Source of the DNA: an uncultured Alphaproteobacteria bacterium
Lineage (GTDB): Bacteria; Pseudomonadota; Alphaproteobacteria; HIMB59; GCA-002718135
Length of the DNA: 64,000 nt
Reading direction: 5' to 3'
Assembly: GCA_902607435.1 (NCBI GenBank)
Contig: CACLJX010000001.1
Coordinates: forward strand, 10,899 to 74,898
Under the pieces are notes generated by a model, which was not told where the DNA came from, ran no database searches, and saw nothing but the letters and a program-made list of their open reading frames with translations. Shown here in pieces: positions 11,773-38,558 of the stretch. Position numbers and translations under genes: made by a program. Within the stretch, counting starts at the first letter, position 1; each line of letters opens with the position of its first letter.

Positions 11773-11857
11773 TGGTAGGAGTAGAGGGAATCGAACCCAC
11801 ACCACCGAAGTGACCGGATTTTGAATCCGGCGCGTCTACCAGTTCCGCCATACTCCC
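11773..11857 (-). tRNA. tRNA-Leu (anticodon CAA), type II with long variable arm, CCA encoded
   Basis: The reverse complement reads GGGAGTATGGCGGAACTGGTAGACGCGCCGGATTCAAAATCCGGTCACTTCGGTGGTGTGGGTTCGATTCCCTCTACTCCTACCA. It has an acceptor stem (G1-U72 wobble), a D-arm and the anticodon stem-loop CCGGA-TTCAAAA-TCCGG. It also has a T-arm GGTTCGATTCC and a 3' CCA. Confidence 0.9.
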
Positions 11858-18683: not shown

Positions 18684-18745
18684 ATTTTAAAAAAAATACA
18701 AAAAAAACATTTATTCTCTTAAAAATTTATTCTAAGATTTTTTAT

Positions 18746-19072
18746 ATGAATAAAGAAAAAGAATATGAATCTATTCATATTGGCCAATCAGAAGATCTCG
18801 ATAAAGACAGTGTAGAAAATTTTGAATATGAAGAAATTGATTACGCTATTTATCATTTAGAGAGTGGGTTCTTTGCAACTCAAGGTCATTGTCATTGTGA
18901 AGAACAAGCTTTGTTGAGTGAAGGCACAATTGAGGGAGAAGAATTAGAATGTGCAAGTTGTGGACGAACGTTCAGTATAGTATCCGGAGATCCTATTAGT
19001 GATCCAGGAATGAAACCATTAAAAATTTACGAAGTTACTGAAGAGAATGGTAGCTTGTTTTTAAATATTTAA
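18746..19072 (+). CDS. Rieske-fold ferredoxin-like mini-protein with non-canonical CxC...CxxC ligands
   Basis: 108 aa. ...GHCHCEEQALLSEGTIEGEELECASCGRTF... aligns to the small oxygenase ferredoxin pattern CxH..LSEG..ECPxHG, with Cys in place of both His. Confidence 0.6.
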   Translation: MNKEKEYESIHIGQSEDLDKDSVENFEYEEIDYAIYHLESGFFATQGHCHCEEQALLSEGTIEGEELECASCGRTFSIVSGDPISDPGMKPLKIYEVTEENGSLFLNI

Positions 19073-23063: not shown

Positions 23064-23510
23064 TTACCACACAGACCCATCAGGTTTGATCACACCCTTA
23101 TTTAAAATAAAACACCCATAAGCTCTTGCATCAGTTGTAGATACAATAACGAAAGCTTCTTTGGCTTCTTTATAAAACTGCATTCTTTCAATGGTGCCGA
23201 TTTTCCATTTATCGCCTGAAGTATTTTTTACAACATCAATAAAATCTTTATGTACGTCGTTTATTTCATGAGGATTGTTATCAATTTCCATTCTTTTGAC
23301 TGGACAGTCAACAAAACTATCAAGTGGAAATACAGATAAGATTGCTTTGGCGGCGTTAGGAATATCAATACCATCCAATCTAACTAATCTTTTTGCTAGT
23401 GATGATGAAGGAAAATTTGCATCAGCTAAAACTAGTGTATCGCCATGTCCCATTGAGCGTAAGGCACTTAACAATTTGGGACTTAAAATTGGATCAATAT
23501 CAATTAACAT
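23064..23510 (-). CDS. RbsD/FucU-family sugar mutarotase/transport-associated protein
   Basis: SMGHGDTLVLADANFP is the family signature. 148 aa. Confidence 0.8.
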   Translation of the reverse strand: MLIDIDPILSPKLLSALRSMGHGDTLVLADANFPSSSLAKRLVRLDGIDIPNAAKAILSVFPLDSFVDCPVKRMEIDNNPHEINDVHKDFIDVVKNTSGDKWKIGTIERMQFYKEAKEAFVIVSTTDARAYGCFILNKGVIKPDGSVW

Positions 23511-23621: not shown

Positions 23622-24377
23622 ATGATTTCCAATCCACCTGATATCATTCTTGAAGCCAAAGGTATCTCAAAATATTTCGGAACAATAACAGCACTTGAAA
23701 GTGCAAATCTTAGTCTTAGGCCTGGAGAAGTGTTAGGTGTTGTTGGAGATAACGGTGCTGGAAAATCTACTCTAATGAAAGTCTTATCTGGTTTATTTAA
23801 ACAAAGCGCAGGATCAATATTTTTTGAAGGCAAAAAAGTAGAGTTCTCTAGTCCTCGAGATTCCCAAAATTTAGGCATAGAAATGGTTTATCAAGATCTT
23901 GCTTTGGCTGAAAACTTACCAATAGGCGATAATATTTTTTTGGGAAGAGAGCCTACAAGAAAGTTTGGACCATTTAAATTTCTTGATCATAAACAAAAAA
24001 GACAGCTGACTGAAGAACATCTTTCTAGGTTAAAAATAAATGTTAAAAGTGCTGATCAAAGAGTAGAAGAACTTTCCGGCGGTCAGCGTCAAGCGGTTGC
24101 AATTGCTAGGGCAACAGCTTTTGATGCAAAAATAGTTATTATGGATGAACCTACAGCCGCTCTTGCAGTAAAAGAAGTTGGCAAAGTTTTAGATTTAATT
24201 AAGGGTCTAAAAAATTTAGGGGTTGGTGTAATTGTAATTAGTCACCGTATGGATGATATATTTACCGTATCAGACCGTGTCATGGCTTTATTTCAAGGAA
24301 CAAATTTTGCTGAGTCACACTTAAGAGAAACTTCTCGAGATGAAGTTATTGGATGGATAATGGGCAAAAAAATATAA
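23622..24377 (+). CDS. sugar ABC transporter ATP-binding protein (single ABC domain)
   Basis: Walker A GDNGAGKST, signature LSGGQRQ, Walker B IVIMDEPT. 251 aa. Confidence 0.9.
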   Translation: MISNPPDIILEAKGISKYFGTITALESANLSLRPGEVLGVVGDNGAGKSTLMKVLSGLFKQSAGSIFFEGKKVEFSSPRDSQNLGIEMVYQDLALAENLPIGDNIFLGREPTRKFGPFKFLDHKQKRQLTEEHLSRLKINVKSADQRVEELSGGQRQAVAIARATAFDAKIVIMDEPTAALAVKEVGKVLDLIKGLKNLGVGVIVISHRMDDIFTVSDRVMALFQGTNFAESHLRETSRDEVIGWIMGKKI

Positions 24378-24381
24378 GTAT

Positions 24382-25389
24382 ATGGAACAAAAAGACGATA
24401 CTCTTTTTATTAAATTAATCCCCTACATTGATAAGTATGGGATACTTCTTTTGATTGCAATAATGTTACTTGTCTTACATCTTCTGCAACCTGATGTATT
24501 TTTTTCATGGCGCAATATAACTAACATATTTAAACAAATATCGTGGCAGTCTATGCTAGCCCTTGGTGTGTTCATGGTCATTGTTACAGCAGGCATAGAT
24601 TTATCTGTCGGATCAATACTCATGTTGTCTTTAATGGCGCTTGCAATTTCATCAAGAGCCGGACTTCCTTGGCAAATTGTAGTTCTCGTTGCACCTGCAG
24701 TAGGATTGGTATGCGGAATGATTAATGGATTAGGAATAACCATTCTTCGAATGCCCCATCCATTTATTATGACTCTTGGGACACTTTATATATTTAGAGG
24801 TGTTGGAAACTTGATTTCAGGTGGTGTTCCAATAGGTGGATTTGCAAATCAAATTAGATCCATAGGAAATGGAAAAATAAAATTAGAGTGGCTTTACGGA
24901 GAGGGTGCGGCACAATACATTCCTTCAAGTCTAATTATTATAATTATTATATATGTTATTTTTTGGATTTTTTTAAATCAAACTAAAATTGGAAAATGGA
25001 TTTATGCGATTGGTGGTAATCCTGGAGCTGCACGAGCAGCTGGGATTAACGTTAATAGAATTTTAGTTCTTGTATATACCTTATGTGGTTTTTTAGCAGG
25101 TATTGGAGCACTAATTCTTGCAGGCAGAACTGGTTCAGCATACCCTAATGCTGGCTTGCAATCAGAACTGGATGCAATTGCTGCTGTCATTATTGGAGGA
25201 GCAAGTTTTTTCGGAGGTCGAGGAACCGTATTAGGTGTTTTTGCAGGAGTATTCATAATGGGATTACTCAGAAATGGCTTAAATTTGATGAATGTTAGTG
25301 TTTTTTGGCAACAAGTTTTAATAGGATCAATTATTATTTTGGCTGTTTATATAGATGTTTTACGTAGGCAATTTGGTACCAGGAAATAA
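24382..25389 (+). CDS. sugar ABC transporter permease (ribose/CUT2-like)
   Basis: Multi-pass membrane protein. TAGIDLSVGS and GGASFFGGRGTV motifs are typical of RbsC-like permeases. Confidence 0.88.
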   Translation: MEQKDDTLFIKLIPYIDKYGILLLIAIMLLVLHLLQPDVFFSWRNITNIFKQISWQSMLALGVFMVIVTAGIDLSVGSILMLSLMALAISSRAGLPWQIVVLVAPAVGLVCGMINGLGITILRMPHPFIMTLGTLYIFRGVGNLISGGVPIGGFANQIRSIGNGKIKLEWLYGEGAAQYIPSSLIIIIIIYVIFWIFLNQTKIGKWIYAIGGNPGAARAAGINVNRILVLVYTLCGFLAGIGALILAGRTGSAYPNAGLQSELDAIAAVIIGGASFFGGRGTVLGVFAGVFIMGLLRNGLNLMNVSVFWQQVLIGSIIILAVYIDVLRRQFGTRK

Positions 25390-25457
25390 CAATAGATTAA
25401 GTTGAATTATTTTCTTTTTTAATTACCATTATTAAATAATTTTTTTAGGAGGAAAAT

Positions 25458-26360
25458 ATGAGACTATTTGTTTCTGTAATTTCTGCAGTTTCGATTCTTT
25501 TCTCTTTTAGTGCTTTTTCAAAAACTATTTTGTTAAGCACCAAAGGACCTGGTTCAGGAAATCCATTTTGGGCTTCTGTTGAACAAGGTGCAAAAGATGC
25601 TGCAGCTGAATTAGGTGTTGATTTAGTTATTTTATCACCACCACAAGAAAGTGATGTAATGGCACAAGTAAATCAACTTGAAGATCAAATTGCTAAAGGC
25701 GTTGATGGTATTGCTGTTGCTCCAACTGATCCGTCTGCTGTTGCTCCAATTCTAGATGATGCTATTGCAGCAGGAATCCCTGTTGTTTACATTGATACTA
25801 ACGGTATTAATGAAGGTGTAACTTTCATTGGAACAAACAATTATAATGGCGCAAAGCTTGCTGCTGATTATATTTGCGGTAAAGTTCCAAGTGGTTCTGA
25901 TGTAGCAATACTTCAAGGAATGATTACACAAACTACTGGTCAACACAGAGCTGAAGGATCACACAAAGGTCTAACAGAATGTGGTTTGAATATAGTAGCT
26001 GAACTTCCAGCAAACTGGGATACTGCACAAGGTATGTCGGTAATGGAAGATATCATTACTGGTAATCCAAATATTAAAGCAGTATTTGCGTCTAATGACA
26101 ATATGGCATTAGGTGCATGGGAAGCACTTGAAGGTGCTGGTATGACTGATGTTGTACTTGTTGGATTTGATGCCAACCCAGATGCAGCTGCAAGTGTTGC
26201 TGCTGGTAAAATGTCAGCAACTGTAGCTCAGTTCTCTTACAATATGGGTTATATGGGAGTAGAAAATGCTCTTAAGTTAGCTAACGGAGAATCAATTCCA
26301 GATAATATTGACACTGGAACTGTTCTTGTCACCGCAGAAAACGCAGCTGACTTTATGTAA
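25458..26360 (+). CDS. periplasmic sugar-binding protein (ABC system 1)
   Basis: Signal peptide ...FSAFS/KT. Periplasmic-binding-protein type I fold hallmarks (VDGIAVAP, VVYIDT, GFDANP). Strong SD AGGAGG upstream. Confidence 0.88.
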   Translation: MRLFVSVISAVSILFSFSAFSKTILLSTKGPGSGNPFWASVEQGAKDAAAELGVDLVILSPPQESDVMAQVNQLEDQIAKGVDGIAVAPTDPSAVAPILDDAIAAGIPVVYIDTNGINEGVTFIGTNNYNGAKLAADYICGKVPSGSDVAILQGMITQTTGQHRAEGSHKGLTECGLNIVAELPANWDTAQGMSVMEDIITGNPNIKAVFASNDNMALGAWEALEGAGMTDVVLVGFDANPDAAASVAAGKMSATVAQFSYNMGYMGVENALKLANGESIPDNIDTGTVLVTAENAADFM

Positions 26361-26385: not shown

Positions 26386-26414
26386 TAAAAAGGCAGGTAA
26401 AACTGCCTTTTTTC
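26386..26414 (+). terminator. intrinsic terminator/attenuator after binding-protein gene 1
   Basis: AAAAAGGCAG-GTAAAA-CTGCCTTTTTTC: 6-bp GC-rich stem (26391..26396 / 26403..26408) extendable by A:T pairs, followed by a T-run. Confidence 0.7.
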
Positions 26415-26476: not shown

Positions 26477-27412
26477 ATGAAAACTATTAAATATTTTTTA
26501 GTAAGTGTAATTTTCTTTTTAGCAATATCAACTTCTGTAAACGCAATTACAATAGGTTTTTCAGTTGCTAGATTTGATGATAATTTCCTAACAGTAATGA
26601 GAAACGACGCTGTTAGACGCGCTGAAGAAGCAGGTCATACTATGCAAGTTGATGATGCAAAGGATGATGTTACAACTCAGTTAAGTCAAGTGCAAAACTA
26701 TATAGCATCTGGTGTAGATGCAATTATTGTCAATGCAGTTGATACTGATACTACTCAAGCAATGACAAAAGCAGCTGAAGGCGCTGGTGTACCACTAGTA
26801 TATGTTAATAGACAACCTATTGATCTAGATGCTTTAGGCGCTACAACAACTTTTGTTGGCTCAAATGAAAAATGGTCTGGAACTCTAGAAGCATTTGAAA
26901 TGTGTGTTCAAGCTGGAGGAACAGGTACAGCAGTAATGCTAATGGGCCAATTAAGTAATGAAGCAGCTCGTTCACGTTCAGAAGATGTCAGAGAAGTACT
27001 TAAACTGTCAATGTGTAATGGCATTGATTTAATTGAAGAGCAAACTGGTAATTGGAGTAGGCTTGAAGCAAACGACATAATGACTAACTGGATTGCTGCT
27101 GGTTTAGAATTCAATATTGTTTTTGCTAATAATGATGAAATGGCAATTGGTGCAATCCAAGCTTTGAAATCAGCTGGAATTAGCATGGATGATGTTATTG
27201 TAGGTGGTGTTGATGCTACTGAAGATGCATTGAATGCAATGCTAGCTGGCGATCTTGATGTAACAGTGTTTCAAAATGCTGCTGCTCAAGGCGCAGGAGC
27301 TGTAGATGCTGCAGCTGCATTAGTTGATGGCGCATCACTTCCAAACTTTGTTGTTATTCCATTTGAATTAGTAACAATGGCCAATATTGATAATTATATT
27401 GGACAAAATTAA
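26477..27412 (+). CDS. periplasmic sugar-binding protein (ABC system 2)
   Basis: Signal peptide ...SVNA/IT. Type I binding-protein motifs (VDAIIVNAVD, LVYVNR, GGVDAT). SD GGGAGG upstream. Confidence 0.88.
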   Translation: MKTIKYFLVSVIFFLAISTSVNAITIGFSVARFDDNFLTVMRNDAVRRAEEAGHTMQVDDAKDDVTTQLSQVQNYIASGVDAIIVNAVDTDTTQAMTKAAEGAGVPLVYVNRQPIDLDALGATTTFVGSNEKWSGTLEAFEMCVQAGGTGTAVMLMGQLSNEAARSRSEDVREVLKLSMCNGIDLIEEQTGNWSRLEANDIMTNWIAAGLEFNIVFANNDEMAIGAIQALKSAGISMDDVIVGGVDATEDALNAMLAGDLDVTVFQNAAAQGAGAVDAAAALVDGASLPNFVVIPFELVTMANIDNYIGQN

Positions 27413-27431
27413 TTCTACTTAATCAATTTTT

Positions 27432-27467
27432 TGACCCCGCAGTAAAAATATATTGCGGGGTCATTTT
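27432..27467 (+). terminator. intrinsic terminator/attenuator after binding-protein gene 2
   Basis: Perfect 10-bp stem TGACCCCGCA (27432..27441) / TGCGGGGTCA (27454..27463), 12-nt loop, then TTTT. It ends 11 nt before the next ATG. Confidence 0.8.
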
Positions 27468-27478
27468 CAAAAACTAAA

Positions 27479-28264
27479 ATGAACAGTGAAGAAAAAAAAA
27501 TAATATTAAAAACAGAAGGTCTTACTAAGCATTATGGTGGTGTCAAAGCCTTACACGATGCTGATTTTACTCTTGCTGACGGAGAACATGTTGCAATCGT
27601 AGGAGATAATGGCGCAGGGAAATCAACATTTATTAGACAAGTAACAGGTGTAGAAATTCCTACATCAGGTAAAATTTATTTTGACGGTAATTTAGTTAAT
27701 TTTAAAACTCCAGCAGATGCAAAAAAAGCTGGAATAGAAGCGGTATATCAAAATTTAGCTTTAGCTGATGATTTAGATGTTCCTTCTAATATTTTTTTAG
27801 GCCAGGAAGAAACATATTTTAACCTTGGACCATTTAGTTTTTTAAATGAAAATAAAATGTTCAAACAATCTATTGATGTATTGGCTAAAACAGGAATTAA
27901 AATCCCTGATATAAAAATTACAATGAATAATATGTCGGGTGGACAAAGGCAGTGCGTTGCAATTAGTCGTTCTGCTGGTTTTGCATCAAAATTAATTATT
28001 ATGGATGAGCCAACAGCTGCTCTTGGTGTACAAGAAACAAAACAAGTAGAAAAAATTATTAGAAGTTTAAAGGAAAATGGAGTGCCTTTAATTATGATTA
28101 GTCATAATTTACGGCAAGTATTTAATTTAGTTGAAAAAATATGGGTATTTCGTCAAGGACAAATTGTCGGTTGTGTTGAAACTTCTAAAACAGATGGTAA
28201 TGAAATTGTTTCTCTCATTACAGGAGTAAAGCAAGGAGTTGGCGAAGAGGCGAGCTTTATATGA
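27479..28264 (+). CDS. sugar ABC transporter ATP-binding protein (single ABC domain)
   Basis: Walker A GDNGAGKST, MSGGQRQ, IIMDEPT. 261 aa. Confidence 0.9.
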   Translation: MNSEEKKIILKTEGLTKHYGGVKALHDADFTLADGEHVAIVGDNGAGKSTFIRQVTGVEIPTSGKIYFDGNLVNFKTPADAKKAGIEAVYQNLALADDLDVPSNIFLGQEETYFNLGPFSFLNENKMFKQSIDVLAKTGIKIPDIKITMNNMSGGQRQCVAISRSAGFASKLIIMDEPTAALGVQETKQVEKIIRSLKENGVPLIMISHNLRQVFNLVEKIWVFRQGQIVGCVETSKTDGNEIVSLITGVKQGVGEEASFI

Positions 28265-28286
28265 TTCATTCTGCAATTATTCTATA

Positions 28287-29306
28287 ATGATTCAAAAACA
28301 AAAAAATTTCATCTCAAGTTATAGAAAATTACCACCTGAATTTAACATTTTTTTAGTTTTATTAGGTATTGCTTTAGTGTTTGAAATTCTAGGATGGATT
28401 TTTATTGGACAAAGTTTTTTACTTAATAAACGAAGGCTCGTCATTATGATCCTACAGGTATCTGTAATTGGAATAATTGCAGTTGGGGTGACACAAGTAA
28501 TTATTATGGCAGGAATTGATTTATCAGGGGGATCTCTTGTTGCCTTATCTGCAATAGTAGCAGCAAGTTTGGCACAAAATTCTACATATACAAAAGCAAT
28601 CTATCCTCATCTAACGGATCTTCCTTTTATTGTACCGGTTTTGGCAGGAATAGCTTGCGGATTATTTGCTGGTTTTATTAGTGGAAGTCTCATCGCCCGG
28701 ACAGGAATTCCTCCCTTTATAGCTACACTGGGTATGCTTGTTTCTGCTAGAGGAGCAGCAGCATGGTATAATAATGGCAAACCTGTAAGTTTTTTAGGGG
28801 ATGACTTTACTGCATTAGGTCAAGGAGCTTGGCCAGTTCTTATCTTTTTAGTTGTTGCAGCAGTTTTTCATATTTTAATGCGATATACTCGATATGGTAA
28901 GCATACCTATGCCATAGGTTCAAATGAAGAAGCCGCCCGTGTAGCTGGTATTAATATTGTCAGACATAAAATTATTGTTTACTCGATTGCTGGAGCTTTA
29001 TCTGGTTTAGCAGGAGTAGTAACAGCCGCAAGGGCTATGTCAGCACAAGCTGGTATGGGGATGATGTATGAGTTAGATGCAATTTCAGCTGCAGTTATAG
29101 GAGGCACATCACTATTTGGAGGAAGAGGAAGGATCGCAGGAACTTTATTTGGAGTTTTAATATTGGGAGTGATATCTTCTGGATTTGTTTTTATGAGAAT
29201 TGATGCTTATTATCAAGACATGGTCAAAGGTGCGATTATTGTTGGAGCAGTTATTGTTGATCATTATCGTAATAAAAAAATGAGAAATAAAGATAAAGAT
29301 ACTTAA
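28287..29306 (+). CDS. sugar ABC transporter permease (ribose/CUT2-like)
   Basis: MAGIDLSGGS and GGTSLFGGRGRI motifs. The ORF-track start at 28239 is a TTG overlapping the ATPase; the first ATG is at 28287. Confidence 0.85.
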   Translation: MIQKQKNFISSYRKLPPEFNIFLVLLGIALVFEILGWIFIGQSFLLNKRRLVIMILQVSVIGIIAVGVTQVIIMAGIDLSGGSLVALSAIVAASLAQNSTYTKAIYPHLTDLPFIVPVLAGIACGLFAGFISGSLIARTGIPPFIATLGMLVSARGAAAWYNNGKPVSFLGDDFTALGQGAWPVLIFLVVAAVFHILMRYTRYGKHTYAIGSNEEAARVAGINIVRHKIIVYSIAGALSGLAGVVTAARAMSAQAGMGMMYELDAISAAVIGGTSLFGGRGRIAGTLFGVLILGVISSGFVFMRIDAYYQDMVKGAIIVGAVIVDHYRNKKMRNKDKDT

Positions 29307-29350
29307 TTAATAAAATTAATTAATTTTGTAATGACCATTCCTAAAAAAAT

Positions 29351-30346
29351 ATGAAAGTTAATTTAAATAAATGGTATTTATGTGATTTAGATAAAGAAAG
29401 ATATGTTCAACTTAAAGAAAAGTCTGATTGGGCAGGTTTTCAACATGTAGGTTTATTCTTTATTAGTTTATTTTTTTTTGGTTATCTTTCTTATTTTTTT
29501 TGGGGAACATGGTTGGGGATAATATTTTTATTAATATATGGAAATATTTATTCTTGTAGCAATCCTATTTGGCATGAAACAGGTCATAGAACTGCTTTTA
29601 AAACAGATTTATATAATAAGATTTTTTATCAAATAGGAAGTTTCATGACAAATTTTGATCCTACAAGATGGCGATGGAGTCATTTTAACCATCATAGTCA
29701 TACACTATTTACAAAAGATCCGTATGATTTTGAAATTGAAATTAGAAAACCTACAGACCTTCTTTTTTTTGCAAGCAGAATCATACCTTGCGGTAGATTT
29801 TTATATATTCATAAATTGCCTCATTTGGAAACTTTACAACATGCTTTAGGTATTACAACTCATGTTATGAAAGATTGTATTCCAAAAAAACAGCAAAATA
29901 AATGCAGGTTAATTGCTCGTATTCATGTTTTAATTTGGATTTTAATCTTTACAGTTGCGATCATTTATCAATCCTGGCTCCCTATAATATATATTATACT
30001 GCCTACATTTTACGGTAACACTCTTTTTGAATTATTTGGTTTAACACAACACGCTGGATTATCAAATAATATTAAAGATCATCGTATTAGTACAAGAACA
30101 GTTATTTTAAATCCTATATTTAGTTTTTTATATTGGCATATGGAGTATCATATTGAGCATCACATGTTTCCTATGATACCATCATATAATTTAAAAAAAT
30201 TACATCACTTAATTAAAGACGATCTTCCTATTCCAAAAAAAAATTTATGGAATGCATACAAAGAAATTATTCCTGCTGTTATTAAACAAACGAAAGATCC
30301 CAATTATAAAATAAATGTAATTCTTCCTGCGCCTAAAATAAATTAA
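29351..30346 (+). CDS. membrane di-iron fatty-acid-desaturase-family oxygenase (MocD / rhizopine-oxygenase-like)
   Basis: Three His boxes: HETGH, HFNHH, HIEHH. The C-terminal HIEHHMFPMIPSYNL resembles the MocD-like subgroup as I recall it. N-terminal TM hairpins. Confidence 0.7.
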   Translation: MKVNLNKWYLCDLDKERYVQLKEKSDWAGFQHVGLFFISLFFFGYLSYFFWGTWLGIIFLLIYGNIYSCSNPIWHETGHRTAFKTDLYNKIFYQIGSFMTNFDPTRWRWSHFNHHSHTLFTKDPYDFEIEIRKPTDLLFFASRIIPCGRFLYIHKLPHLETLQHALGITTHVMKDCIPKKQQNKCRLIARIHVLIWILIFTVAIIYQSWLPIIYIILPTFYGNTLFELFGLTQHAGLSNNIKDHRISTRTVILNPIFSFLYWHMEYHIEHHMFPMIPSYNLKKLHHLIKDDLPIPKKNLWNAYKEIIPAVIKQTKDPNYKINVILPAPKIN

Positions 30347-30357
30347 ATTTAAAATTT

Positions 30358-31179
30358 TTAATTAATAGAGCAAGTTTTTTTTAAATAATTTATACTTTTA
30401 ATTATTTTGTTTGATGGATTTTTCATATTCTGAATTTTTTTTGCAAAAGGTTCAAAGGAAAATACTCCTTCATATCCTTTTTTAATTAAGTTTTTTAATT
30501 GATCAACATTCTTCAAAACATCATTTTCATCAATTAATACTCTATGTTTATCAAGCATTTCTGAGGTTTTTAATTTATTATTAGATACTCCAGAAATATG
30601 AACCAAACCTGTTTGTTTAGGAAATATCTTATTTTCTCCTGCTAGGTAATGATGAAAAGTATCATGTAAGATTTTTAAAGTATTTTTTGGCGAAATTTGA
30701 TCTATAGCTTCTGCTACTTCACTTTTAAAACGAAGTGATGATGTTTTAAAGCCTAATGGTTCGACATAACCCATTAAACTATAATTATTTAAAATTGACT
30801 TAATTTTTTTTAGAGAATTATATAATAATTTTTGGCGTTCTTTATGGTTTATAAATTTACCATTATTTAAAGGGACAAGTACAATTCCTTTGCAATTACA
30901 TTTTTTTGCAAATTCACATAGAAATATAAGTTCTTTCCTCCTTTTATCATTCCATAGATTGAATTTTTGTAATGCATTAATGGAGAGTATCTTAATTTTT
31001 AATTCTTTGGATAATTCTTTTATCATATTTGGTTCCATAGCCTTAAGAGAAACATTAGGTAAATCATTTCGTATTTCAATATTTTGAATATTCATATTAT
31101 TTGATAATGCAAAAAAATCTTTTAATATTAAATTTGGTGACAATATGTGATTTAAAGCAAAATGATTATTTATACTCAT
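30358..31179 (-). CDS. xylose-isomerase-like TIM-barrel protein (IolI / MocC-like sugar isomerase/epimerase)
   Basis: 273 aa. The pattern of conserved E/H/D (YVEPLG, HDTFHH, HISG, FEPF) is typical of AP-endonuclease-2/xylose-isomerase-like TIM barrels. Confidence 0.65.
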   Translation of the reverse strand: MSINNHFALNHILSPNLILKDFFALSNNMNIQNIEIRNDLPNVSLKAMEPNMIKELSKELKIKILSINALQKFNLWNDKRRKELIFLCEFAKKCNCKGIVLVPLNNGKFINHKERQKLLYNSLKKIKSILNNYSLMGYVEPLGFKTSSLRFKSEVAEAIDQISPKNTLKILHDTFHHYLAGENKIFPKQTGLVHISGVSNNKLKTSEMLDKHRVLIDENDVLKNVDQLKNLIKKGYEGVFSFEPFAKKIQNMKNPSNKIIKSINYLKKTCSIN

Positions 31180-31296
31180 TTTTTTACCATATAATTATTA
31201 ATTTTTATTTCAACATATAATATTGTAAGGTAATTTGATGAGAAAAATTTTCAAACATTTAAAAACTTCTTTATAATAAAATAATTTTTTTATATT

Positions 31297-32442
31297 ATGT
31301 TAAAAATTGGTTTAATTGGGTGTGGACACATTGCTGAAACTTATTTTAGAAGTCAGAAATATTTTAACAACATAGAAATCATATCGTGTGCAGATATAAA
31401 CGCTGAAGCTGCAAAAAAATGTGCACAAGAATATAATATTGAATCCAAAGACGTTGATGGTCTTTTAGCAGACAAGGAAATTAGTATTGTGTTAAATTTA
31501 ACAACTCCTCAAGCTCACTATGAAATAATTAAGAAAACATTACTTGCTGGAAAACACTCTTATTGTGAAAAACCACTATCAACAAATTATGAACACGGTG
31601 CTGAATTGCTACAATTAGCAAATGATAACAACTTATATATTGGTAATGCTCCCGATACATTTTTAGGAGGAGGAGCTCAATTAGCTCGTCAATTAATTGA
31701 TCAAGACAAAATAGGGGATATTAAGCTAGGAGCTATCAATTTTGCATTTCCTGGAGTGCAATCTTTTCACCCTGAACCGGAATCTTGGTTTAAGAAAGGA
31801 GGAGGTCCTGTAATTGATATGGGGCCCTATTATTTTACTGCATTAGTCAATCTTCTTGGTCCAGCAAAATGCGTTCGTGCGAAAGCAATAAAAGTCAATG
31901 ATTACAGAACTATTGCCACGGGACCAAAAAAGGGTGATAAATTTGAAGTTGAGATCCCCACTTCGATAATAGGATCAATAGAATTTAAAAATTCGGCCGT
32001 GATACAATTTTTTTTATCATTTGATGTTATTAATCATCAAAGAAATCACATTGAGCTTTATGGAACTAAAGGATCAATGATAGTGCCGGATCCAAATATG
32101 TTTGGAGGATCTGTTTTTTCGTCTTATACAGAACGTGGTGAGTGGAAAGAATACTCTTCCTCAAATATGTTGATTGGTAAAACGAATATTTTTAACAAAA
32201 GCGTGAGGTCCAATGAACAACCAGAAGTTGCTAATTATCGGGGTGTTGGATTATCTGAAATGATTGATGCTATAGAAAATAATAGAACCAATAGATGTAA
32301 CGGAAAACTTTCTCTACATGTTTTAGATATGATTGATTCAACAATTAATGCCGCCATCAATGGCGTTGAACAAAATTTAAGAACAAGTTGTGAAAGACCA
32401 TTGGTCTTTTCTGAAAATGAAATTAAACAATTAATGAAGTGA
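31297..32442 (+). CDS. Gfo/Idh/MocA-family NAD(P)-dependent oxidoreductase
   Basis: N-terminal Rossmann motif IGLIGCGHIA and the CEKP motif. 381 aa. Confidence 0.85.
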   Translation: MLKIGLIGCGHIAETYFRSQKYFNNIEIISCADINAEAAKKCAQEYNIESKDVDGLLADKEISIVLNLTTPQAHYEIIKKTLLAGKHSYCEKPLSTNYEHGAELLQLANDNNLYIGNAPDTFLGGGAQLARQLIDQDKIGDIKLGAINFAFPGVQSFHPEPESWFKKGGGPVIDMGPYYFTALVNLLGPAKCVRAKAIKVNDYRTIATGPKKGDKFEVEIPTSIIGSIEFKNSAVIQFFLSFDVINHQRNHIELYGTKGSMIVPDPNMFGGSVFSSYTERGEWKEYSSSNMLIGKTNIFNKSVRSNEQPEVANYRGVGLSEMIDAIENNRTNRCNGKLSLHVLDMIDSTINAAINGVEQNLRTSCERPLVFSENEIKQLMK

Positions 32443-33698
32443 TGCAATCCTTTAACTCAGTTCAAATTGAAAAAAATATAATAAAACAAAAAGTAAAATT
32501 AAAGCAGTTATCTCATAATTATAAAATAAACTTTGAAAATATAGAAAAAAAAATTTTGATTGATGTTGAAGAAGTCGAAAAATTAAAAATACAAAATAAA
32601 AAAATTATTCCAGAGATTGATTATAAAAATATAAAATATCAATTAATTAATAACGAAATTGTTGATCTTGTAAAAAAGAGAGGCTGTGTTGTAATACGTA
32701 ATGTATTCGAAAAAGAAAAAGTTATTAAATGGAATCGTGAAATTGAGCAATATATTGATGAAAATAATTATTATGAAGATCAAAAAGAAAAAGCAGGCTT
32801 GGATCAATATTTTAGTGATCTTCAGTCGGGGAAACCGCAAATTTTTGGATTGTACTGGTCTAAACCACAAATAGAAGCAAGAGAGTCAGAGAGTATGGCT
32901 ATTGTTAAATCTTGGCTAAACAACTTGTGGAAATATGAATTTAACAATATAAAAATTTTTGATCCAAATAAAGAGCTAGTATATGCGGATCGTATCCGGC
33001 GGCGTGAAGGGGGAGATGCTTCGCTAGGACTATCTCCACACTGTGATGCTGGATCAGTAGAGCGATGGATTGATAGTGCTTATCAAAAAATTTATGAACC
33101 AATTTTCTCTGATAAGTTAATGGATTATAATCCTTTTAATGCACAATTTAGGGATCAAACAGAAGAAATATCTTCGGCAGCTGTTAGCCATGTATTTCGA
33201 ACTTTTCAAGGGTGGTTAGCACTTACAGAACAAGGTCCCTCTGACGGCACTTTACAATTAATTCCAATTATCAAATCCATGGCTTACATTTTAACACGAG
33301 CCCTTCTTGATGATGTGCCTAATAATTCTTTATGTGGTTCTATGCCCGCCAGGGCTCTTTCTGTTAACTCTAAATACCATTCTGTTTTACTAAGAGCATT
33401 GATATCTATACCTAAAGTATATCCTGGTGATACAGTTTGGTGGCATCCTGATGTTGTTCACGCAGTAGAAGATAAACATCATGGCAAAAATTATAGTAAT
33501 GTAATTTATGTTGGTTCAACTCCTTATTGTCAAAAAAATTTTGATTACGCAAAAAAACAATCAGCAAAATTTTTAGAAGGGAAAAGTCCTCCTGATTTTG
33601 CGGCAGAAGATTATGAAGTGAATTATACTGGGAGAGCGACTATTAATGATTTAACCGCATTGGGTAAAAAACAAATGGCACTAGAGAGTTGGGATTAA
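32439..33698 (+). CDS. DUF1479 (YbiU-like) protein, putative Fe(II)-dependent oxygenase
   Basis: 419 aa, similar in length and layout to E. coli YbiU. Candidate facial triad SPHCDAG ... WWHPDVVHAVE. The start overlaps the upstream stop (GTGATG). Confidence 0.6.
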   Translation: MMQSFNSVQIEKNIIKQKVKLKQLSHNYKINFENIEKKILIDVEEVEKLKIQNKKIIPEIDYKNIKYQLINNEIVDLVKKRGCVVIRNVFEKEKVIKWNREIEQYIDENNYYEDQKEKAGLDQYFSDLQSGKPQIFGLYWSKPQIEARESESMAIVKSWLNNLWKYEFNNIKIFDPNKELVYADRIRRREGGDASLGLSPHCDAGSVERWIDSAYQKIYEPIFSDKLMDYNPFNAQFRDQTEEISSAAVSHVFRTFQGWLALTEQGPSDGTLQLIPIIKSMAYILTRALLDDVPNNSLCGSMPARALSVNSKYHSVLLRALISIPKVYPGDTVWWHPDVVHAVEDKHHGKNYSNVIYVGSTPYCQKNFDYAKKQSAKFLEGKSPPDFAAEDYEVNYTGRATINDLTALGKKQMALESWD

Positions 33699-34194: not shown

Positions 34195-35193
34195 ATGAAA
34201 AGTTTAGATGCAATACTTGACAATATTCAACAAAATAACTTCCTTATTATAGGAAGGGCTGGAATTGATATTTATCCAGATCCTCCAGGAACTAAAACAG
34301 AAAATGCCAAAAAGTTTGTAACTCACTTAGGGGGATCATCGGCAAACATTGCTGTTGCTTTAACTAAGCTTGGTGGCAAATGTCATTTACTGACCTGCGT
34401 ATCTGAAGATGCACTAGGAAGATTAGCTGTGAATCAACTTAATCACTATGGTGTTGATACTTCTTTAATTAGATATGTGAAAGGTGAGTCTAGAATTTCT
34501 TTTGCCGTAGTTGAAACAACAATTAAAGAACATCAATCTATCATTTATCGTAATAGTGCTGCAGATTTAGAAATGAGTAAAGAAGATGTTAATCAAATTA
34601 ATTATAAAAAATTTTCTTCCATTATAGTTACAGGTACTTCCTTAGCAGCAGAGCCTTCTCGATCAGCTACATTAGAAGTTTTAAATAAAGCAAAAAAAAA
34701 TAATCTATCTATTATTTTGGACATTGATTATCGCCCTTATACATGGAGCTCTTTGCAAGAAGCATCCAGAACCTATCTTAAAGCTGCAGAAGTTAGTGAT
34801 ATCATAATTGGGAATGATGATGAATTTGGTGTAATGGCAGAGGATTATAATGAAGGAATAAAATTAGCTGCAAAATTAAGTAAATCTACTGCTTCAATTG
34901 TAATTTATAAAATGGGAGAAAATGGATCAATTACTTTTACGGAAAATAAAAAAATTAAGACTGGAATATTTCAAGTCCATGCATTAAAGCCAACAGGGGC
35001 TGGTGATGCGTTTATGGGTGTTTTTATTTCATCGCTTTTAAATAAAAAATCAATTAAAGATTCAGTTGTTTATGGATCAGCAGCAGCAGCAATTGTAGTA
35101 ACAAAAGTTGGTTGTTCGCCAGCTATGCCTGATAAGGAAGAATTAGAATTATTTCTAAAAGAAAATATGATAACAAACTTTAAAGAAAGTTAA
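34195..35193 (+). CDS. iolC: 5-dehydro-2-deoxygluconokinase (PfkB family)
   Basis: PfkB motifs GGSSANIAV and TGAGDAF. Operon context with iolB. Confidence 0.8.
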   Translation: MKSLDAILDNIQQNNFLIIGRAGIDIYPDPPGTKTENAKKFVTHLGGSSANIAVALTKLGGKCHLLTCVSEDALGRLAVNQLNHYGVDTSLIRYVKGESRISFAVVETTIKEHQSIIYRNSAADLEMSKEDVNQINYKKFSSIIVTGTSLAAEPSRSATLEVLNKAKKNNLSIILDIDYRPYTWSSLQEASRTYLKAAEVSDIIIGNDDEFGVMAEDYNEGIKLAAKLSKSTASIVIYKMGENGSITFTENKKIKTGIFQVHALKPTGAGDAFMGVFISSLLNKKSIKDSVVYGSAAAAIVVTKVGCSPAMPDKEELELFLKENMITNFKES

Positions 35194-35194
35194 A

Positions 35195-36037
35195 ATGCAT
35201 ATTCCTCCACTAGACAATAACAATCAACCTATTGTTGATGCGAATGACTCTAGAGTTCCACTAAATTACTTTAATATAGTAAAATTAAAAAAAGATCAGT
35301 CTTTCGAGTACATTGTTCCGGGTTATGAAACTTGTATTGTGCCAGCTACGGGTACTATTGATATTGAAGTAGAAGGTATAAATTATAATACTATTGGAAA
35401 TAGAATTGCCAATGTTTGGGATGGAGAACCGGAAGGCGTATATATACCAACTAAAACTAAAGCTAGTTTTGTATGTAAAACTGAGAAAGCAGAAATTTTT
35501 ATAGCCGGGGCTAAATACGATAAAATACTTCAACCTTTTGCAGTAAGATCAAAAGAAATTGATATGGTTCAATATGGCTCTGATGACACTAAAACACATA
35601 GAAAAATTAAACATATTCTTGGTGCCAATCACCATGACAAAGTTGGAAGACTGCTATGTAATGAACTTTATACGGTGGGACAAGGAGGTTGGTCCGGATT
35701 TCCACCTCACAAACATGATACTGACCGCCTTCCTGACGAAACACGTCATGATGAAACATATAATTATCGATTTAAACCTAATCATGGATTTGGATTTCAA
35801 CTTTTTCAAAAAGAAGATGGCAAATTAGGAGAAGCACACCACATTACTGATGGATCAACAGTTGTGATTGATAAAGGATATCATCCATGTGTGGTTGCTC
35901 CTGGATATGAAATGTATTATTTCACAATTCTAGGTGGATTAAGTCAAAGATCTCTTGTTCAATACTTTCAACCTGATCACGCATATCAAATTGAAACTAT
36001 ACCCGGTATTAAAGATATGATTGCTAAATATAAATGA
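35195..36037 (+). CDS. iolB: 5-deoxy-glucuronate isomerase
   Basis: GGWSGFPPHKHDTDRLPDETRHDETYNYRF matches the IolB cupin core (SSYPPHKHD...EETYY). Confidence 0.85.
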   Translation: MHIPPLDNNNQPIVDANDSRVPLNYFNIVKLKKDQSFEYIVPGYETCIVPATGTIDIEVEGINYNTIGNRIANVWDGEPEGVYIPTKTKASFVCKTEKAEIFIAGAKYDKILQPFAVRSKEIDMVQYGSDDTKTHRKIKHILGANHHDKVGRLLCNELYTVGQGGWSGFPPHKHDTDRLPDETRHDETYNYRFKPNHGFGFQLFQKEDGKLGEAHHITDGSTVVIDKGYHPCVVAPGYEMYYFTILGGLSQRSLVQYFQPDHAYQIETIPGIKDMIAKYK

Positions 36038-36867
36038 CAGTTAAAACTTTAAAAGAAGTTTTAAACAAAGCTAATAAAAAAAAATATGCCGTTGCAGGAC
36101 TGGTTGTTTTAGGATGGGAAGATGCTTTAGCTTATACCCAAGCTGCAGATGAAACTGGTATTCCGATAATTCTTCAAGCAGGACCTGGCTGCAGAAAATA
36201 TACACCCGTTTCTATTTTGGGTAAAATGTTTCGTTATTTAGCAGATCAAACAAAAACACCTGTTGTATGTCATATTGATCATGGATATTCAGTACGAGAA
36301 TGTTTAGAGGGAATTGACAACGGATTTACATCAGTTATGTTTGACGGCTCAAAATTACCAATAAAACAAAATATAAAAATAACTTCATCAATAGTTAAAA
36401 TAGCCCATAAATCTAATGTTTCCGTTGAAGGAGAAGTTGGTTTCGTTGGTTATAATGAAGGTAAGATGTCAATAGGGAGCAAAATAGAGGAGGTAGAATT
36501 ATTTGCAAAAGAAAGTGGTGCAGATGCAATTGCAATTTCTGTTGGTAATAAGCATTTGCAAACAACAAAAATTGCAAAAATAGATTTTGATAAAATTAGT
36601 GCTATTGAAAAAATCACTCACTCCCCTCTTGTACTTCATGGGGGAAGTGGTATTCCAAGTATTATTAGAAAAAAACTAGCAAGAAATTATAATGTTGCTA
36701 AATTTAATATTGGAACTGAACTTAGGATGCTTTTTGGTAATACAGTTAGAAAAAATATTTTAAGAAATAAAAAAAGTTATGATAGAATAGAATTGTTGAA
36801 ACCAACTATTAAAGAAATGACAAAACTTACAAAAAAAATTATTTTTAATATTGGTCCTGCAATATAA
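36034..36867 (+). CDS. iolJ: class II fructose-bisphosphate-aldolase-family enzyme (IolJ-like 6-phospho-5-dehydro-2-deoxygluconate aldolase)
   Basis: HIDHG, SVMFDGS, LVLHGGSG class II aldolase motifs. ATGA overlap with iolB. Confidence 0.75.
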   Translation: MTVKTLKEVLNKANKKKYAVAGLVVLGWEDALAYTQAADETGIPIILQAGPGCRKYTPVSILGKMFRYLADQTKTPVVCHIDHGYSVRECLEGIDNGFTSVMFDGSKLPIKQNIKITSSIVKIAHKSNVSVEGEVGFVGYNEGKMSIGSKIEEVELFAKESGADAIAISVGNKHLQTTKIAKIDFDKISAIEKITHSPLVLHGGSGIPSIIRKKLARNYNVAKFNIGTELRMLFGNTVRKNILRNKKSYDRIELLKPTIKEMTKLTKKIIFNIGPAI

Positions 36868-36872
36868 TTTAC

Positions 36873-37661
36873 ATGTTAAATAATTCTATTATTGATATTT
36901 GGAAAAATGGCAAAGCCGTTATTAACGGTTGGTTATCTATTCCTAATAGTTTTACTGCAGAAAGCATGGCAAAAATGGGATGGGATTCTTTAACTATAGA
37001 TCTACAACATGGTATGAATGATTATTCAACTTCAATTTCCATGCTTCAAGCAATTGCTAATTCTTCTACTATTCCATTTGCTAGAGTTCCTTGGAATGAA
37101 CCAGGGATAATTATGAAAATGCTTGATGCTGGAACTTGCGGAATCATAGCCCCAATGATTAATACCAAAGAAGAATGTGAAAAATTTGTTTCTTATTGTC
37201 GTTACCCACCTTTAGGTCAGAGAAGTTTTGGTCCTATGAGAGCACAATTATCTTTTGGTTTGGATTATCACCAAGATGCTAACACTCAAATTATTACACT
37301 AGCAATGATTGAAACTCAAGAAGCCGTAAAAAATATTGATGAAATATTATCTGTAGAAAATTTGAATGGTATTTATGTAGGTCCAGCCGATATGAGTTTA
37401 ACCTATGGTTTAAAGCCACAATTTGATGTTAAGGAGGATCCTGTTTTTTCAAATATTAAGCTAATTGTCAAAAAAGCAAAAGAGCATGGCAAAATAGCTG
37501 GTATACATAATGGAACTACTGAATACGCTAAAGAAATGATATCTCTAGGCTATCAGTTTGTTACAATTTCATCAGATTATAGGGCGATGTCGACATATGC
37601 GCAAAGTATAATCAAAGAAATGAAAGAAATAAAAGAAATAAAAGAAAGCTCCTCTTACTAG
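36873..37661 (+). CDS. HpcH/HpaI-family (class II pyruvate) aldolase
   Basis: 262 aa. WLSIPNSFTAE, DLQHG, RVPWNEPG, GPADMS are typical of 2-keto-3-deoxy-acid aldolases. Confidence 0.8.
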   Translation: MLNNSIIDIWKNGKAVINGWLSIPNSFTAESMAKMGWDSLTIDLQHGMNDYSTSISMLQAIANSSTIPFARVPWNEPGIIMKMLDAGTCGIIAPMINTKEECEKFVSYCRYPPLGQRSFGPMRAQLSFGLDYHQDANTQIITLAMIETQEAVKNIDEILSVENLNGIYVGPADMSLTYGLKPQFDVKEDPVFSNIKLIVKKAKEHGKIAGIHNGTTEYAKEMISLGYQFVTISSDYRAMSTYAQSIIKEMKEIKEIKESSSY

Positions 37662-37664
37662 ATA

Positions 37665-38558
37665 TTAAATATTATAGCCTACTTCAGTTAGTATTTTGCT
37701 AAGATAATTATATCCAATTTTGGCATATTCAAGCGGATTAGCCTTTTTTGGATCTTGCTCGGCTTCTACTACTAGCCATTTTATATATTTATTATTATAT
37801 AAAGTTTCAAGCAGTGGCTTATAGTTGATGCATCCATCACCTGGTACGGTAAAAATTCCCTCTAAAAAAGAATCTCTAAAACTTAGATCATTTGCAAGTG
37901 ATCTATTTAAAACTTCCTGTCTGATATCTTTGCAATGTACATGATTAATTCGACCTACATATTTTTTTAATATTGATTCATAATCCCCTTGTGCAAAAAG
38001 AATATGACCTGTATCAAAAAGTAGTGAGGTTTTATCATTTGTATTATCAAGTAATCGATCAACATCTTGTTCTGTTTGAATTATAGTTCCCATATGTGAA
38101 TGATATGACATCGGTAATCCAACATCAGATAGTCTTTTCGAAATTTCTGTAATTTTGTTACAATAATTGTTCCACTCACTATCTATTAATTTAGGTCTTG
38201 CACTAAGCGCAACACCAGCTTCTCCTTGAATAGAGCCTGAAACATCAGCAAATATAAAAACAGAGGATTTAACAAATTTGAGTAGTTCAATTTGGGTTTG
38301 CATAGCTTGCCATTCTTCTTCAATACTCTTTTCTTTTAATTTTGATCCATACCAGCCACCAGGCAAATAAAGATTAAATTTATTAATGAGGTATTTTACT
38401 GTACCTGGGTTTCTTGGAAATTTACCCCCCAATTCAATTCCACTATATCCAACAGATTGAGCTTCAAAAAGACAAGTCTCAATAGGAGTATCACCACCAA
38501 GTTCTGGCATGTCATCATTACTCCAAGCAATTGGTGCTATTCCAAGGTTTATATTCAC
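37665..38558 (-). CDS. iolE: inosose (2-keto-myo-inositol) dehydratase
   Basis: The N-terminus LGIAPIAWSNDDMPELGG is characteristic of IolE. TIM barrel of 297 aa. Confidence 0.88.
   Translation of the reverse strand: MNINLGIAPIAWSNDDMPELGGDTPIETCLFEAQSVGYSGIELGGKFPRNPGTVKYLINKFNLYLPGGWYGSKLKEKSIEEEWQAMQTQIELLKFVKSSVFIFADVSGSIQGEAGVALSARPKLIDSEWNNYCNKITEISKRLSDVGLPMSYHSHMGTIIQTEQDVDRLLDNTNDKTSLLFDTGHILFAQGDYESILKKYVGRINHVHCKDIRQEVLNRSLANDLSFRDSFLEGIFTVPGDGCINYKPLLETLYNNKYIKWLVVEAEQDPKKANPLEYAKIGYNYLSKILTEVGYNI

Follow-up and report, generated by a model that had tools for sequence, protein, structure and literature searches.

A 64 kb stretch of the uncultured alphaproteobacterial contig CACLJX010000001.1 (hereafter the window, meaning the whole of the DNA analysed) carries, inside an island of inositol catabolic (iol) genes, a block at 26477-33698 that contains a predicted membrane di-iron oxygenase assigned to the MocD family. 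We give an even chance to the reading that this block is an accessory pre-processing module, in which a modified cyclitol would be imported, oxidatively demethylated and isomerised into the iol pathway. A preliminary description of the region had proposed that a modified cyclitol, possibly an inosamine, is fed into the iol genes. Its demethylation part is backed by a syntenic gene triad, by an IolI-like TIM barrel and by one-carbon (C1) folate genes beside homologous oxygenases; its inosamine or rhizopine part is very unlikely, the window being without MocE, MocF, MocR, a MocA orthologue and a MocB of the NF052284 type. Loci used for comparison are given below by their L numbers.

The oxygenase and its family

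The oxygenase gene (29351..30346, + strand, 331 aa) matches PF00487 (FA_desaturase) at 112.6 bits against a cutoff of 29.7. All three His boxes that had been noticed before are present (HETGH, HFNHH and HIEHH at residues 75, 111 and 267), and their His residues are invariant in 42 family members. Hydrophobic blocks at residues ~32-66 and 184-220 lie ahead of box 1 and between boxes 2 and 3, and on this combination of three His boxes and hydrophobic segments the protein is classed as a membrane FA_desaturase-like di-iron enzyme.

Identity to the MocD and MocD-like proteins of Rhizobium leguminosarum and R. etli, which adjoin ferredoxins passing the TIGR02377 model, reaches 40-41% over 97% of the length. 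A total of 283 plasmid records match at ~34-41% identity over 97% length, one of them annotated as "hydrocarbon oxygenase MocD-like protein". Behind the MocD-type genes of R. etli, Sinorhizobium meliloti pSymB, Mesorhizobium huakuii, Aminobacter and Paracoccus comes a gene for a MocE-family Rieske ferredoxin and, usually, one for a flavin adenine dinucleotide (FAD) reductase. In a neighbour-joining tree, the SAR11 members make up a radiation whose sister group is the rhizobial MocD clade. Clustering with acyl-lipid desaturases, which the preliminary description had named as fatal to its proposal, was not seen. Scores on NCBIfam desaturase/hydroxylase models are very weak (29-36 bits; for DesB, 29 bits against a cutoff of 500) and, together with the identity to MocD, bear out the earlier call of a MocD-like protein rather than a lipid desaturase. 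A search of the PDB returned no solved relative, lipid desaturases included, with AlkB at E 0.5. The MocD family is small, with 118 representative clusters at E<=1e-30 among 1.84 billion. Distant homologues from Clostridia, Planctomycetota and Victivallales (26-33% identity; L018-L037) share no partner genes and served as outgroup only. On this evidence the oxygenase is placed in the MocD family, closer to MocD than to lipid desaturases, carotenoid oxygenases or AlkB, and it is probably a methyl-group hydroxylase, that is, an O-demethylase.

An importer, an IolI-like TIM barrel and a conserved triad

The oxygenase gene shares one co-oriented unit with a CUT2 importer of the ATP-binding cassette (ABC) type, made of the periplasmic substrate-binding protein (SBP) SBP2 (26477..27412, +, Peripla_BP_4), a single-domain ATPase (27479..28264, +, ABC_tran) and a permease (28239..29306, +, BPD_transp_2). 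Gaps within the unit are 66, -26 and 44 bp: the ATPase and permease genes overlap by 26 bp and the permease stop lies 44 bp ahead of the oxygenase gene, an interval in which a terminator scan found no terminator-like site. The gene of a TIM barrel protein (30358..31179, - strand, 273 aa, xylose-isomerase-like PF01261) converges on the oxygenase. Diverging from it is a pair composed of a 381-aa Gfo/Idh/MocA (GFO) dehydrogenase, here GFO381 (31297..32442, +, with the GFO_IDH_MocA N- and C-terminal Pfam domains), and a DUF1479/Gig2-like protein (32439..33698, +, PF07350 at 426.8 bits, with a weak PhyH match of 25 bits).

Directly upstream of the SBP2 unit stands the other CUT2-type importer (23622-26360, last gene SBP1), so that both sugar ABC importers formerly placed just 5′ of the oxygenase are confirmed (23622-26360 and 26477-29306). 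A bidirectional terminator-like hairpin (26387..26412; 10 bp stem, AAAAAGGCAGG...CTGCCTTTTT) separates the two and is followed by a GGGAGGA ribosome-binding site ahead of the SBP2 ATG. A promoter scan was uninformative (39 sites against 45.8 expected), leaving the hairpin as the only such element used, and Rfam found no riboswitch or regulatory RNA. The oxygenase recurs, identical or 98-100% identical, on independent TARA and JGI contigs (L057, L058, L106) with the same order of SBP2, ATPase, permease, oxygenase and convergent TIM barrel; because it is kept on independent contigs, the arrangement is real and no accident of assembly.

Both importers have half-size, single-domain ATPases (251 aa at 23622-24377 and 261 aa at 27479-28264), whose match to RbsA-type models (~500 aa) is confined to the N-terminal half. 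In Marivivens the orthologue (L139:12131-12901) is equal in size.

SBP2 shares 52% identity with the MocB-position SBP that adjoins MocR and MocD in an R. leguminosarum locus (L043), and 57-58% with those of Rhizobium RCAM05350 (L138), Pararhizobium qamdonense (L140) and the marine isolate Marivivens sp. LCG002 (L139), each of which adjoins a TIM barrel and a MocD gene. The window ATPase and permease are 62% and 55% identical to their Marivivens counterparts. L138 is composed of genes for PurU, PanB-like, MocF, MocE and MocD with divergent LacI, TIM and SBP genes; L140 has PanB-like, MocF, MocE and MocD with divergent LacI, TIM, SBP, ATPase, permease and GFO genes; and L139 runs LacI, MocD, MocE, hydrolase, PanB-like, TIM, SBP, permease, ATPase, iolG, iolC, iolD, iolE, iolB. 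Two Ensifer adhaerens records place an SBP2 homologue 2.5-3.7 kb from a MocD-like gene. The best PDB relative of SBP2 is 4YO7 (E 1e-49); its single-sequence AlphaFold2 model had a predicted local distance difference test (pLDDT) score of 44 and was not used.

The TIM barrel is 35-47% identical to the MocD-adjoining TIM barrels of R. etli, M. huakuii, Rhizobium RCAM05350, Pararhizobium and Marivivens, and its homologues are named 2-keto-myo-inositol isomerase by JGI, NCBI and UniRef. Its AlphaFold2 model (pLDDT 95) has a template modelling (TM) score of 0.88 to both Salmonella STM4435 (2Q02/4HGX according to the Foldseek descriptions, and present in the PDB only as a structural-genomics entry) and Bacillus subtilis IolI, above generic ketose epimerases. 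Against the IolI structure 1I60, Foldseek gave TM 0.88 (E 2e-17) and phmmer a weak match (E 1e-4); sequence identity is 30% to STM4435 and a weak 21% to IolI. Literature searches on 4YO7 and STM4435 found nothing. We consider the protein a putative inosose (2-keto-myo-inositol) isomerase of the IolI/STM4435-like kind.

Finding it again in Rhizobium, Pararhizobium and Marivivens, we interpret the combination of SBP2-type importer, MocD-type oxygenase and IolI-like TIM barrel as a unit conserved across two orders and repeatedly joined to iol genes. In a marine locus (L046) the TIM barrel gene is linked with those for a PanB-like protein, an oxygenase and GFO(382), and a locus from a second SAR11 lineage (L068) combines TIM, PanB-like, oxygenase, GFO381, two iolG and iolD genes.

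C1-folate genes and a proposed demethylation

True PanB uses 5,10-methylene-tetrahydrofolate. No neighbour of MocD-family oxygenases is more constant than a divergent PanB-like gene, which lies within 3 kb in 21 of 29 SAR11 loci and, at a limit of 10 kb, in 9 of 11; the encoded proteins score far under true PanB cutoffs (examples at L004:9094-9966, L012:5975-6802, L044:11673-12473 and L043:11681-12112). Most of the rhizobial loci examined have it too, L043 and S. meliloti pSymB among them; Aminobacter (L002) does not. PurU and FolD come after it in M. huakuii (L044) and in the MocR-type locus L043, and PurU does so in L138. The PanB-like/FolD/PurU string bears the signature of the type of C1-folate oxidation set that accompanies demethylases. 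Because C1-folate genes adjoin its homologues, we infer that the oxygenase hydroxylates a methyl group whose C1 unit is captured on tetrahydrofolate. PMC2593844 describes MocD as the oxygenase that turns 3-O-methyl-scyllo-inosamine into scyllo-inosamine. A literature search returned no report of a bacterial pinitol or methyl-inositol demethylase.

The PanB-like gene (ketopantoate hydroxymethyltransferase family) is not part of the mocCABRDEF description.

If the module works as proposed, the SBP2 importer would bring in a modified cyclitol, most likely an O-methyl-inositol, and the oxygenase, reduced by a carrier encoded elsewhere, would hydroxylate the methyl group. Collapse of the resulting hemiacetal would release formaldehyde and a free inositol isomer, which GFO381 or IolG could oxidise to an inosose. 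The IolI-like TIM barrel would then isomerise this to 2-keto-myo-inositol, from which IolE, IolD, IolB, IolC and IolJ would continue. The DUF1479 protein might perhaps be a second oxygenase that acts on another substituent.

Comparison with the rhizobial moc system

L043, from R. leguminosarum bv. viciae, encodes a GFO protein, an SBP, a frameshifted MocR-type regulator (GntR-aminotransferase), MocD, MocE (178 bits on TIGR02377) and MocF, with a DegT-type aminotransferase nearby, and is classed as a moc-type locus. The window oxygenase is 40% identical to its MocD. The preliminary description had seen the same parts list in the window as in moc, the reductase excepted; the likeness turns out to be at superfamily level. 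On the MocB model NF052284 (cutoff 420 bits) SBP1 scores 89.3 and SBP2 31.3 bits, and the SBP at the MocB position of L043 itself reaches only 39 bits. Searching with both domains of the L043 MocR-type open reading frame (ORF) by tblastn gave no match in the window, and the window has no LacI-type regulator. GFO381 and the L043 protein at the MocA position share a superfamily only (23% identity), the latter being more like IolG. The 273-aa TIM barrel has no homologue in L043, whose IolE-type gene, at the MocC position, is 45% identical to the window iolE; MocC we take to be a TIM barrel of the IolE/MocC family.

The rhizobial MocDEF systems of S. meliloti L5-30 and R. leguminosarum thus share with the window the FA_desaturase subfamily, the His-box architecture, a link to inositol catabolism and an SBP of the same type. 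They differ in that the window has no MocE-family ferredoxin, MocF, MocR, MocA orthologue or NF052284-matching SBP. With no nitrogen-handling gene in the island, an inosamine is an unlikely substrate. We classify the module, from its gene content, as holding a MocD-family member and as not being a moc system.

Electron supply and the all-Cys Rieske-fold protein

Some MocD-family proteins are natural fusions, either with a Rieske domain (alone or together with an FNR-type reductase) or with both rubredoxin and rubredoxin reductase (P0365-P0367, P0376, P0379, P0397, P0439, P0478). These fusions show that the family requires a one-electron carrier, either Rieske or rubredoxin. Searches for MocE, MocF and the other partner genes covered the whole window. 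In it, tblastn with the MocF proteins of R. etli, R. leguminosarum and SAR11 gave nothing significant, in agreement with the earlier remark that a MocF-like reductase is missing, and no canonical ferredoxin was found; the other genes are housekeeping. That the missing reductase makes the system mechanistically distinct, as had been suggested, does not follow: it is common in the oxygenase family, with MocE or MocF nearby in 9 of 40 scorable SAR11 loci and neither in cis in the other 31. Orphan oxygenase lineages in SAR11 have no carrier nearby, and the MocF/MocE-type SAR11 loci have two oxygenases per single MocF/MocE pair. The simplest reading is a shared electron carrier encoded elsewhere in the genome.

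The preliminary description had offered as MocE a small Rieske-fold protein from the same island (18746..19072, +, 108 aa; PF00355 at 31.5 bits). We rejected it as a member of that family on three grounds: a TIGR02377 score of 37.1 bits against a cutoff of 136.15 (by comparison, the ferredoxin of SAR11 locus L012 passes at 137.8 bits), an all-Cys site, and its place in another operon. In the site, C-x-C...C-x-x-C replaces the Rieske C-x-H...C-x-x-H, so that both His ligands are missing; all of 120 homologues keep C49, C51, C69 and C72, the first two of which flank a variable residue. The gene always ends its operon, behind a RhaM mutarotase, an enolase-superfamily dehydratase (MR_MLE), a short-chain dehydrogenase/reductase (SDR), an FAA-family hydrolase and usually a flavin mononucleotide (FMN) L-lactate dehydrogenase, which as an operon is assigned to an oxidative 6-deoxyhexose route of the fucose or rhamnose type. 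The protein is probably not part of the module. It is nevertheless the sole small metal-site protein in the island, its gene shares an island with the oxygenase in the window, L015 and L087, and contigs L051-L055 stop short of the position where the oxygenase would lie; as an electron carrier for the oxygenase it is a long-shot candidate.

These proteins form a conserved SAR11 family of ~106 aa with 612 homologues, in which an invariant C-x-C...C-A-S-C site stands instead of Cys2His2; members are found in the window (18746-19072, +), L015:374-694, L051-L055 and L087.

GFO381 and DUF1479

Of 40 scorable SAR11 loci, 13 have a GFO381 orthologue (59-69% identity) adjoining the oxygenase and 9 have MocE/MocF; none has both (Fisher's exact p=0.02, relatedness of loci ignored). 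GFO381 was considered as a substitute for MocE/MocF and rejected, being a Gfo/Idh/MocA enzyme without a one-electron cofactor; the exclusion more likely reflects separate locus types. It is only 21-24% identical to rhizobial GFO proteins, and among solved structures it comes closest to an uncharacterised oxidoreductase and the C-glycoside 3-oxidase DgpA.

The DUF1479 start overlaps the GFO381 stop by 4 bp, and DUF1479 also adjoins the oxygenase in L005, L007, L008, L013 and L067. Its PDB relatives (4RGK/7TWC, YbiU, Gig2) are all without assigned function, and a literature search found no characterised function for DUF1479; the protein probably has the fold of Fe(II)/2-oxoglutarate oxygenases. 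GFO381 and DUF1479 are SAR11-specific additions, often found with a PhyH-family protein.

Weighing the cyclitol reading

A number of observations weigh against the cyclitol demethylation reading. The expected linkage of the oxygenase to iol and transport genes holds here, in L068 and in Marivivens; it is not general, iol genes lying within 10 kb in only 4 of 11 SAR11 loci. Two loci (L006 and L038) contain oxygenase-GFO381-PhyH/DUF1479 sets with an XylA2-type isomerase, an FGGY kinase and a transketolase, and no iol genes. Oxygenase paralogues are carried by the oxidative aldose loci L012, L017 and L084 and by a GH127/CUT1 locus (L011), and others sit in non-sugar settings, as a bare oxygenase/PanB-like pair in a core-genome context or beside a coenzyme A (CoA) transferase. 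In S. meliloti, SBP2-type proteins are ~870 kb from MocD. The window itself lacks PanB-like, PurU, FolD, MocE and MocF genes, and GFO381 and DUF1479 have no assigned chemistry. Biochemistry in the MocD family is confined to rhizopine members, and the reading would need an open-ocean source of methyl-inositols. The SBP2 relative 4YO7 was presumably solved with myo-inositol bound. Because of the varied SAR11 contexts the oxygenase family overall is not inositol-specific, and the cyclitol assignment is drawn from this lineage's importer and TIM barrel and from cross-order synteny.

The same contexts feed a rival that we judge rather unlikely, in which the substrate of the module is an aldose or glycoside, methylated or modified in some other way, and the module came to lie among iol genes through mosaic assembly of a hypervariable sugar island. 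The L006/L038 sets occupy the same chromosomal site as the window module, before glyoxalase, ribF and ileS; paralogues are found with lactonase, SDR, MR_MLE, dihydrodipicolinate synthase (DHDPS) and IlvD genes or with GH127 and CUT1 importers; the mocDEF genes of Pseudomonas syringae adjoin xylA2 (PMC5132102); and DgpA, as said, is near GFO381. What speaks for a cyclitol is that the window oxygenase shares a unit with an importer whose Marivivens orthologue joins iolGCDEB, that its convergent neighbour is IolI-like, and that no aldose kinase, isomerase or lactonase adjoins it. Less probable still, in our estimate, is hydroxylation of a C-H bond in a deoxy- or C-methyl-cyclitol (quercitol-type, cyclohexanetetrol, laminitol, mytilitol), with DUF1479 as second hydroxylase. 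The AlkB/XylM-type hydroxylase superfamily and the members fused to rubredoxin and rubredoxin reductase, like alkane hydroxylase systems, would suit this, as would the up to three oxygenase-type genes that stand together in SAR11 loci; the window is also among the few loci without a PanB-like gene, so that C1 capture may be unneeded there. Against it, the triad orthologues in Rhizobium, Pararhizobium and Marivivens all keep the PanB-like gene, one of them PurU as well, and O-demethylation is the only activity in the family that has been assigned genetically.

Two further rivals receive very little of our belief. A true rhizopine or inosamine (moc) system would account for a MocD-family oxygenase, for the 52% identity of SBP2 to the MocB-position SBP of a MocR-type locus and for the presence of iol genes; it is contradicted by the absence from the window of a MocR-type regulator, a MocE-family ferredoxin and MocF, by the distance of GFO381 from the MocA-position gene, by SBP scores far under the NF052284 cutoff, by domain scans that found no aminotransferase or deaminase in the island, and by the described rarity of rhizopines in nature (PMC6668481). 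We find it just as hard to credit that an ordinary acyl-lipid desaturase or lipid hydroxylase lies in a sugar island by chance. The Pfam FA_desaturase domain, the name "fatty acid desaturase" given to homologues by sources and the non-sugar contexts of some SAR11 paralogues point that way. The DesB score, the lack of a PDB relative among lipid desaturases and the clustering with MocD proteins oppose it, as do the conserved partners (importer, TIM barrel, PanB-like, MocE, MocF) and the fusions, which are to Rieske domains or rubredoxin and none to cytochrome b5.

The SAR11 radiation and other known systems

The oxygenase family has radiated in SAR11, 15 of 97 loci having two or three paralogues (L003-L017, L058-L137); a place beside sufE, galT and galE is also among the settings of its paralogues. 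We offer, with considerable doubt, the broader view that SAR11 MocD-type oxygenases, mostly with a PanB-like partner, strip methyl groups from methylated sugars and cyclitols of marine dissolved organic matter, the window being the cyclitol version with its carrier elsewhere. Skeletons would then enter sugar or inositol pathways, and the oxidised methyl group, perhaps by way of the PanB-like protein, tetrahydrofolate and C1 oxidation, with the all-Cys Rieske-fold protein conceivably serving as shared carrier. A literature search returned no report linking MocD or rhizopine with SAR11.

The closest architecture to the window is that of LacI-regulated mocDEF-like loci (R. etli, M. huakuii, Rhizobium RCAM05350, Pararhizobium qamdonense and Marivivens sp. 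LCG002), which share with it the SBP2-type importer (55-62% in Marivivens), the oxygenase (34-41%) and the TIM barrel (35-47%). Absent from the window but encoded in those loci are a LacI repressor, MocE (with or without MocF) and PanB-like (with or without PurU and FolD); GFO381 and DUF1479, conversely, are additions of the window that those loci lack. In woody-host P. syringae, an orphan mocDEF without mocCABR lies beside the alternative xylose isomerase gene xylA2 (PMC5132102). This arrangement parallels SAR11 loci where the oxygenase is two genes from an XylA2-type protein (PF27526); the window differs, having no XylA2 and, in that position, iolC, iolB, iolJ-like and iolE.

In marine Bacteroidota, a P450/ferredoxin/ferredoxin reductase system demethylates 6-O-methyl-D-galactose (PMC6292453, PMC9400963). 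The logic would be the same as that proposed here, with oxidative O-demethylation to formaldehyde and a usable sugar and a requirement for formaldehyde handling; the enzyme families are unrelated (haem P450 versus membrane di-iron) and the analogy is one of function only. AlkB/XylM hydroxylases share with the oxygenase the superfamily, the His-box di-iron site and the need for a one-electron carrier; in sequence the oxygenase is only marginally similar to AlkB, as noted above, and the context of the oxygenase is carbohydrate, not hydrocarbon.

Methylated sugars and cyclitols are organic matter closed to ordinary sugar pathways, and the only established marine route for removal of sugar O-methyl groups is the P450 system of polysaccharide-degrading Bacteroidota. 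If the demethylation proposal is true, SAR11, the most abundant marine heterotroph, would have a dedicated and diversified means to open methylated compounds and could burn the methyl group via its known C1 oxidation pathway. The proposal also offers a testable function for the widespread orphan mocDEF-like loci, namely the rhizobial TIM/PanB-like loci (possibly for pinitol- or ononitol-type plant cyclitols) and the P. syringae mocDEF-xylA2 cluster. Marivivens sp. LCG002, with its entire locus contiguous with iolGCDEB, is identified as a cultured marine model.

The surrounding island

Every ORF listed in the preliminary description is present at its coordinates, and all its domain calls proved right by Pfam and profile search of the window proteins. 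The window has a G+C content of ~30%. Identity of its housekeeping genes to their counterparts in single-cell and metagenome-assembled genomes of Pelagibacteraceae is 71-87%, from which we conclude that the DNA belongs to a SAR11-type organism.

Upstream of the importers lie iolG (20045-21055, -; TIGR04380, 390 bits, cutoff 355) and iolD (21200-23044, +; TIGR04377, 779 bits, cutoff 715). Downstream of the module, 34195..38558 holds iolC (TIGR04382, 319 bits, cutoff 300), iolB, a class II aldolase (iolJ-like), an HpaI-like aldolase and, on the minus strand, iolE (37665-38558; TIGR04379, 367 bits, cutoff 290). The iolB score on TIGR04378 (169 bits) is under the cutoff of 205, so that it is assigned at family level only. 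We assign iolG and iolD to the upstream arm of the canonical inositol pathway, and the genes of 34195..38558 to the downstream arm.

The island is of mixed content: alongside the inositol genes, the segments 16687-20038, 23064-23510 and 36873-37661 encode part of an oxidative 6-deoxyhexose pathway, namely an FAA-family diketo-hydrolase, an FMN lactate dehydrogenase, a 2-hydroxyacid dehydrogenase, a FucU/RbsD-type mutarotase and an HpaI/RhmA-like aldolase. SBP1 is RbsB-like, and the importer to which it belongs, the first of the two, may serve this pathway. Elsewhere in the window, a plastocyanin/azurin-family cupredoxin (62194-62631, +) adjoins cytochrome c oxidase genes and CtaG and belongs to housekeeping respiration, unrelated to the module.

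As a whole, ~14182-38558 is a SAR11 hypervariable carbohydrate island, located between a tRNA (11776-11857), an EF-G-like gene and sufE on one side and ribF-ileS on the other. Between flanks that related genomes retain (sufE-galT-galE at one end and glyoxalase-ribF-ileS at the other), the cassettes are exchanged. In L059 and L062, an oxygenase paralogue, 63-68% identical, directly adjoins sufE.

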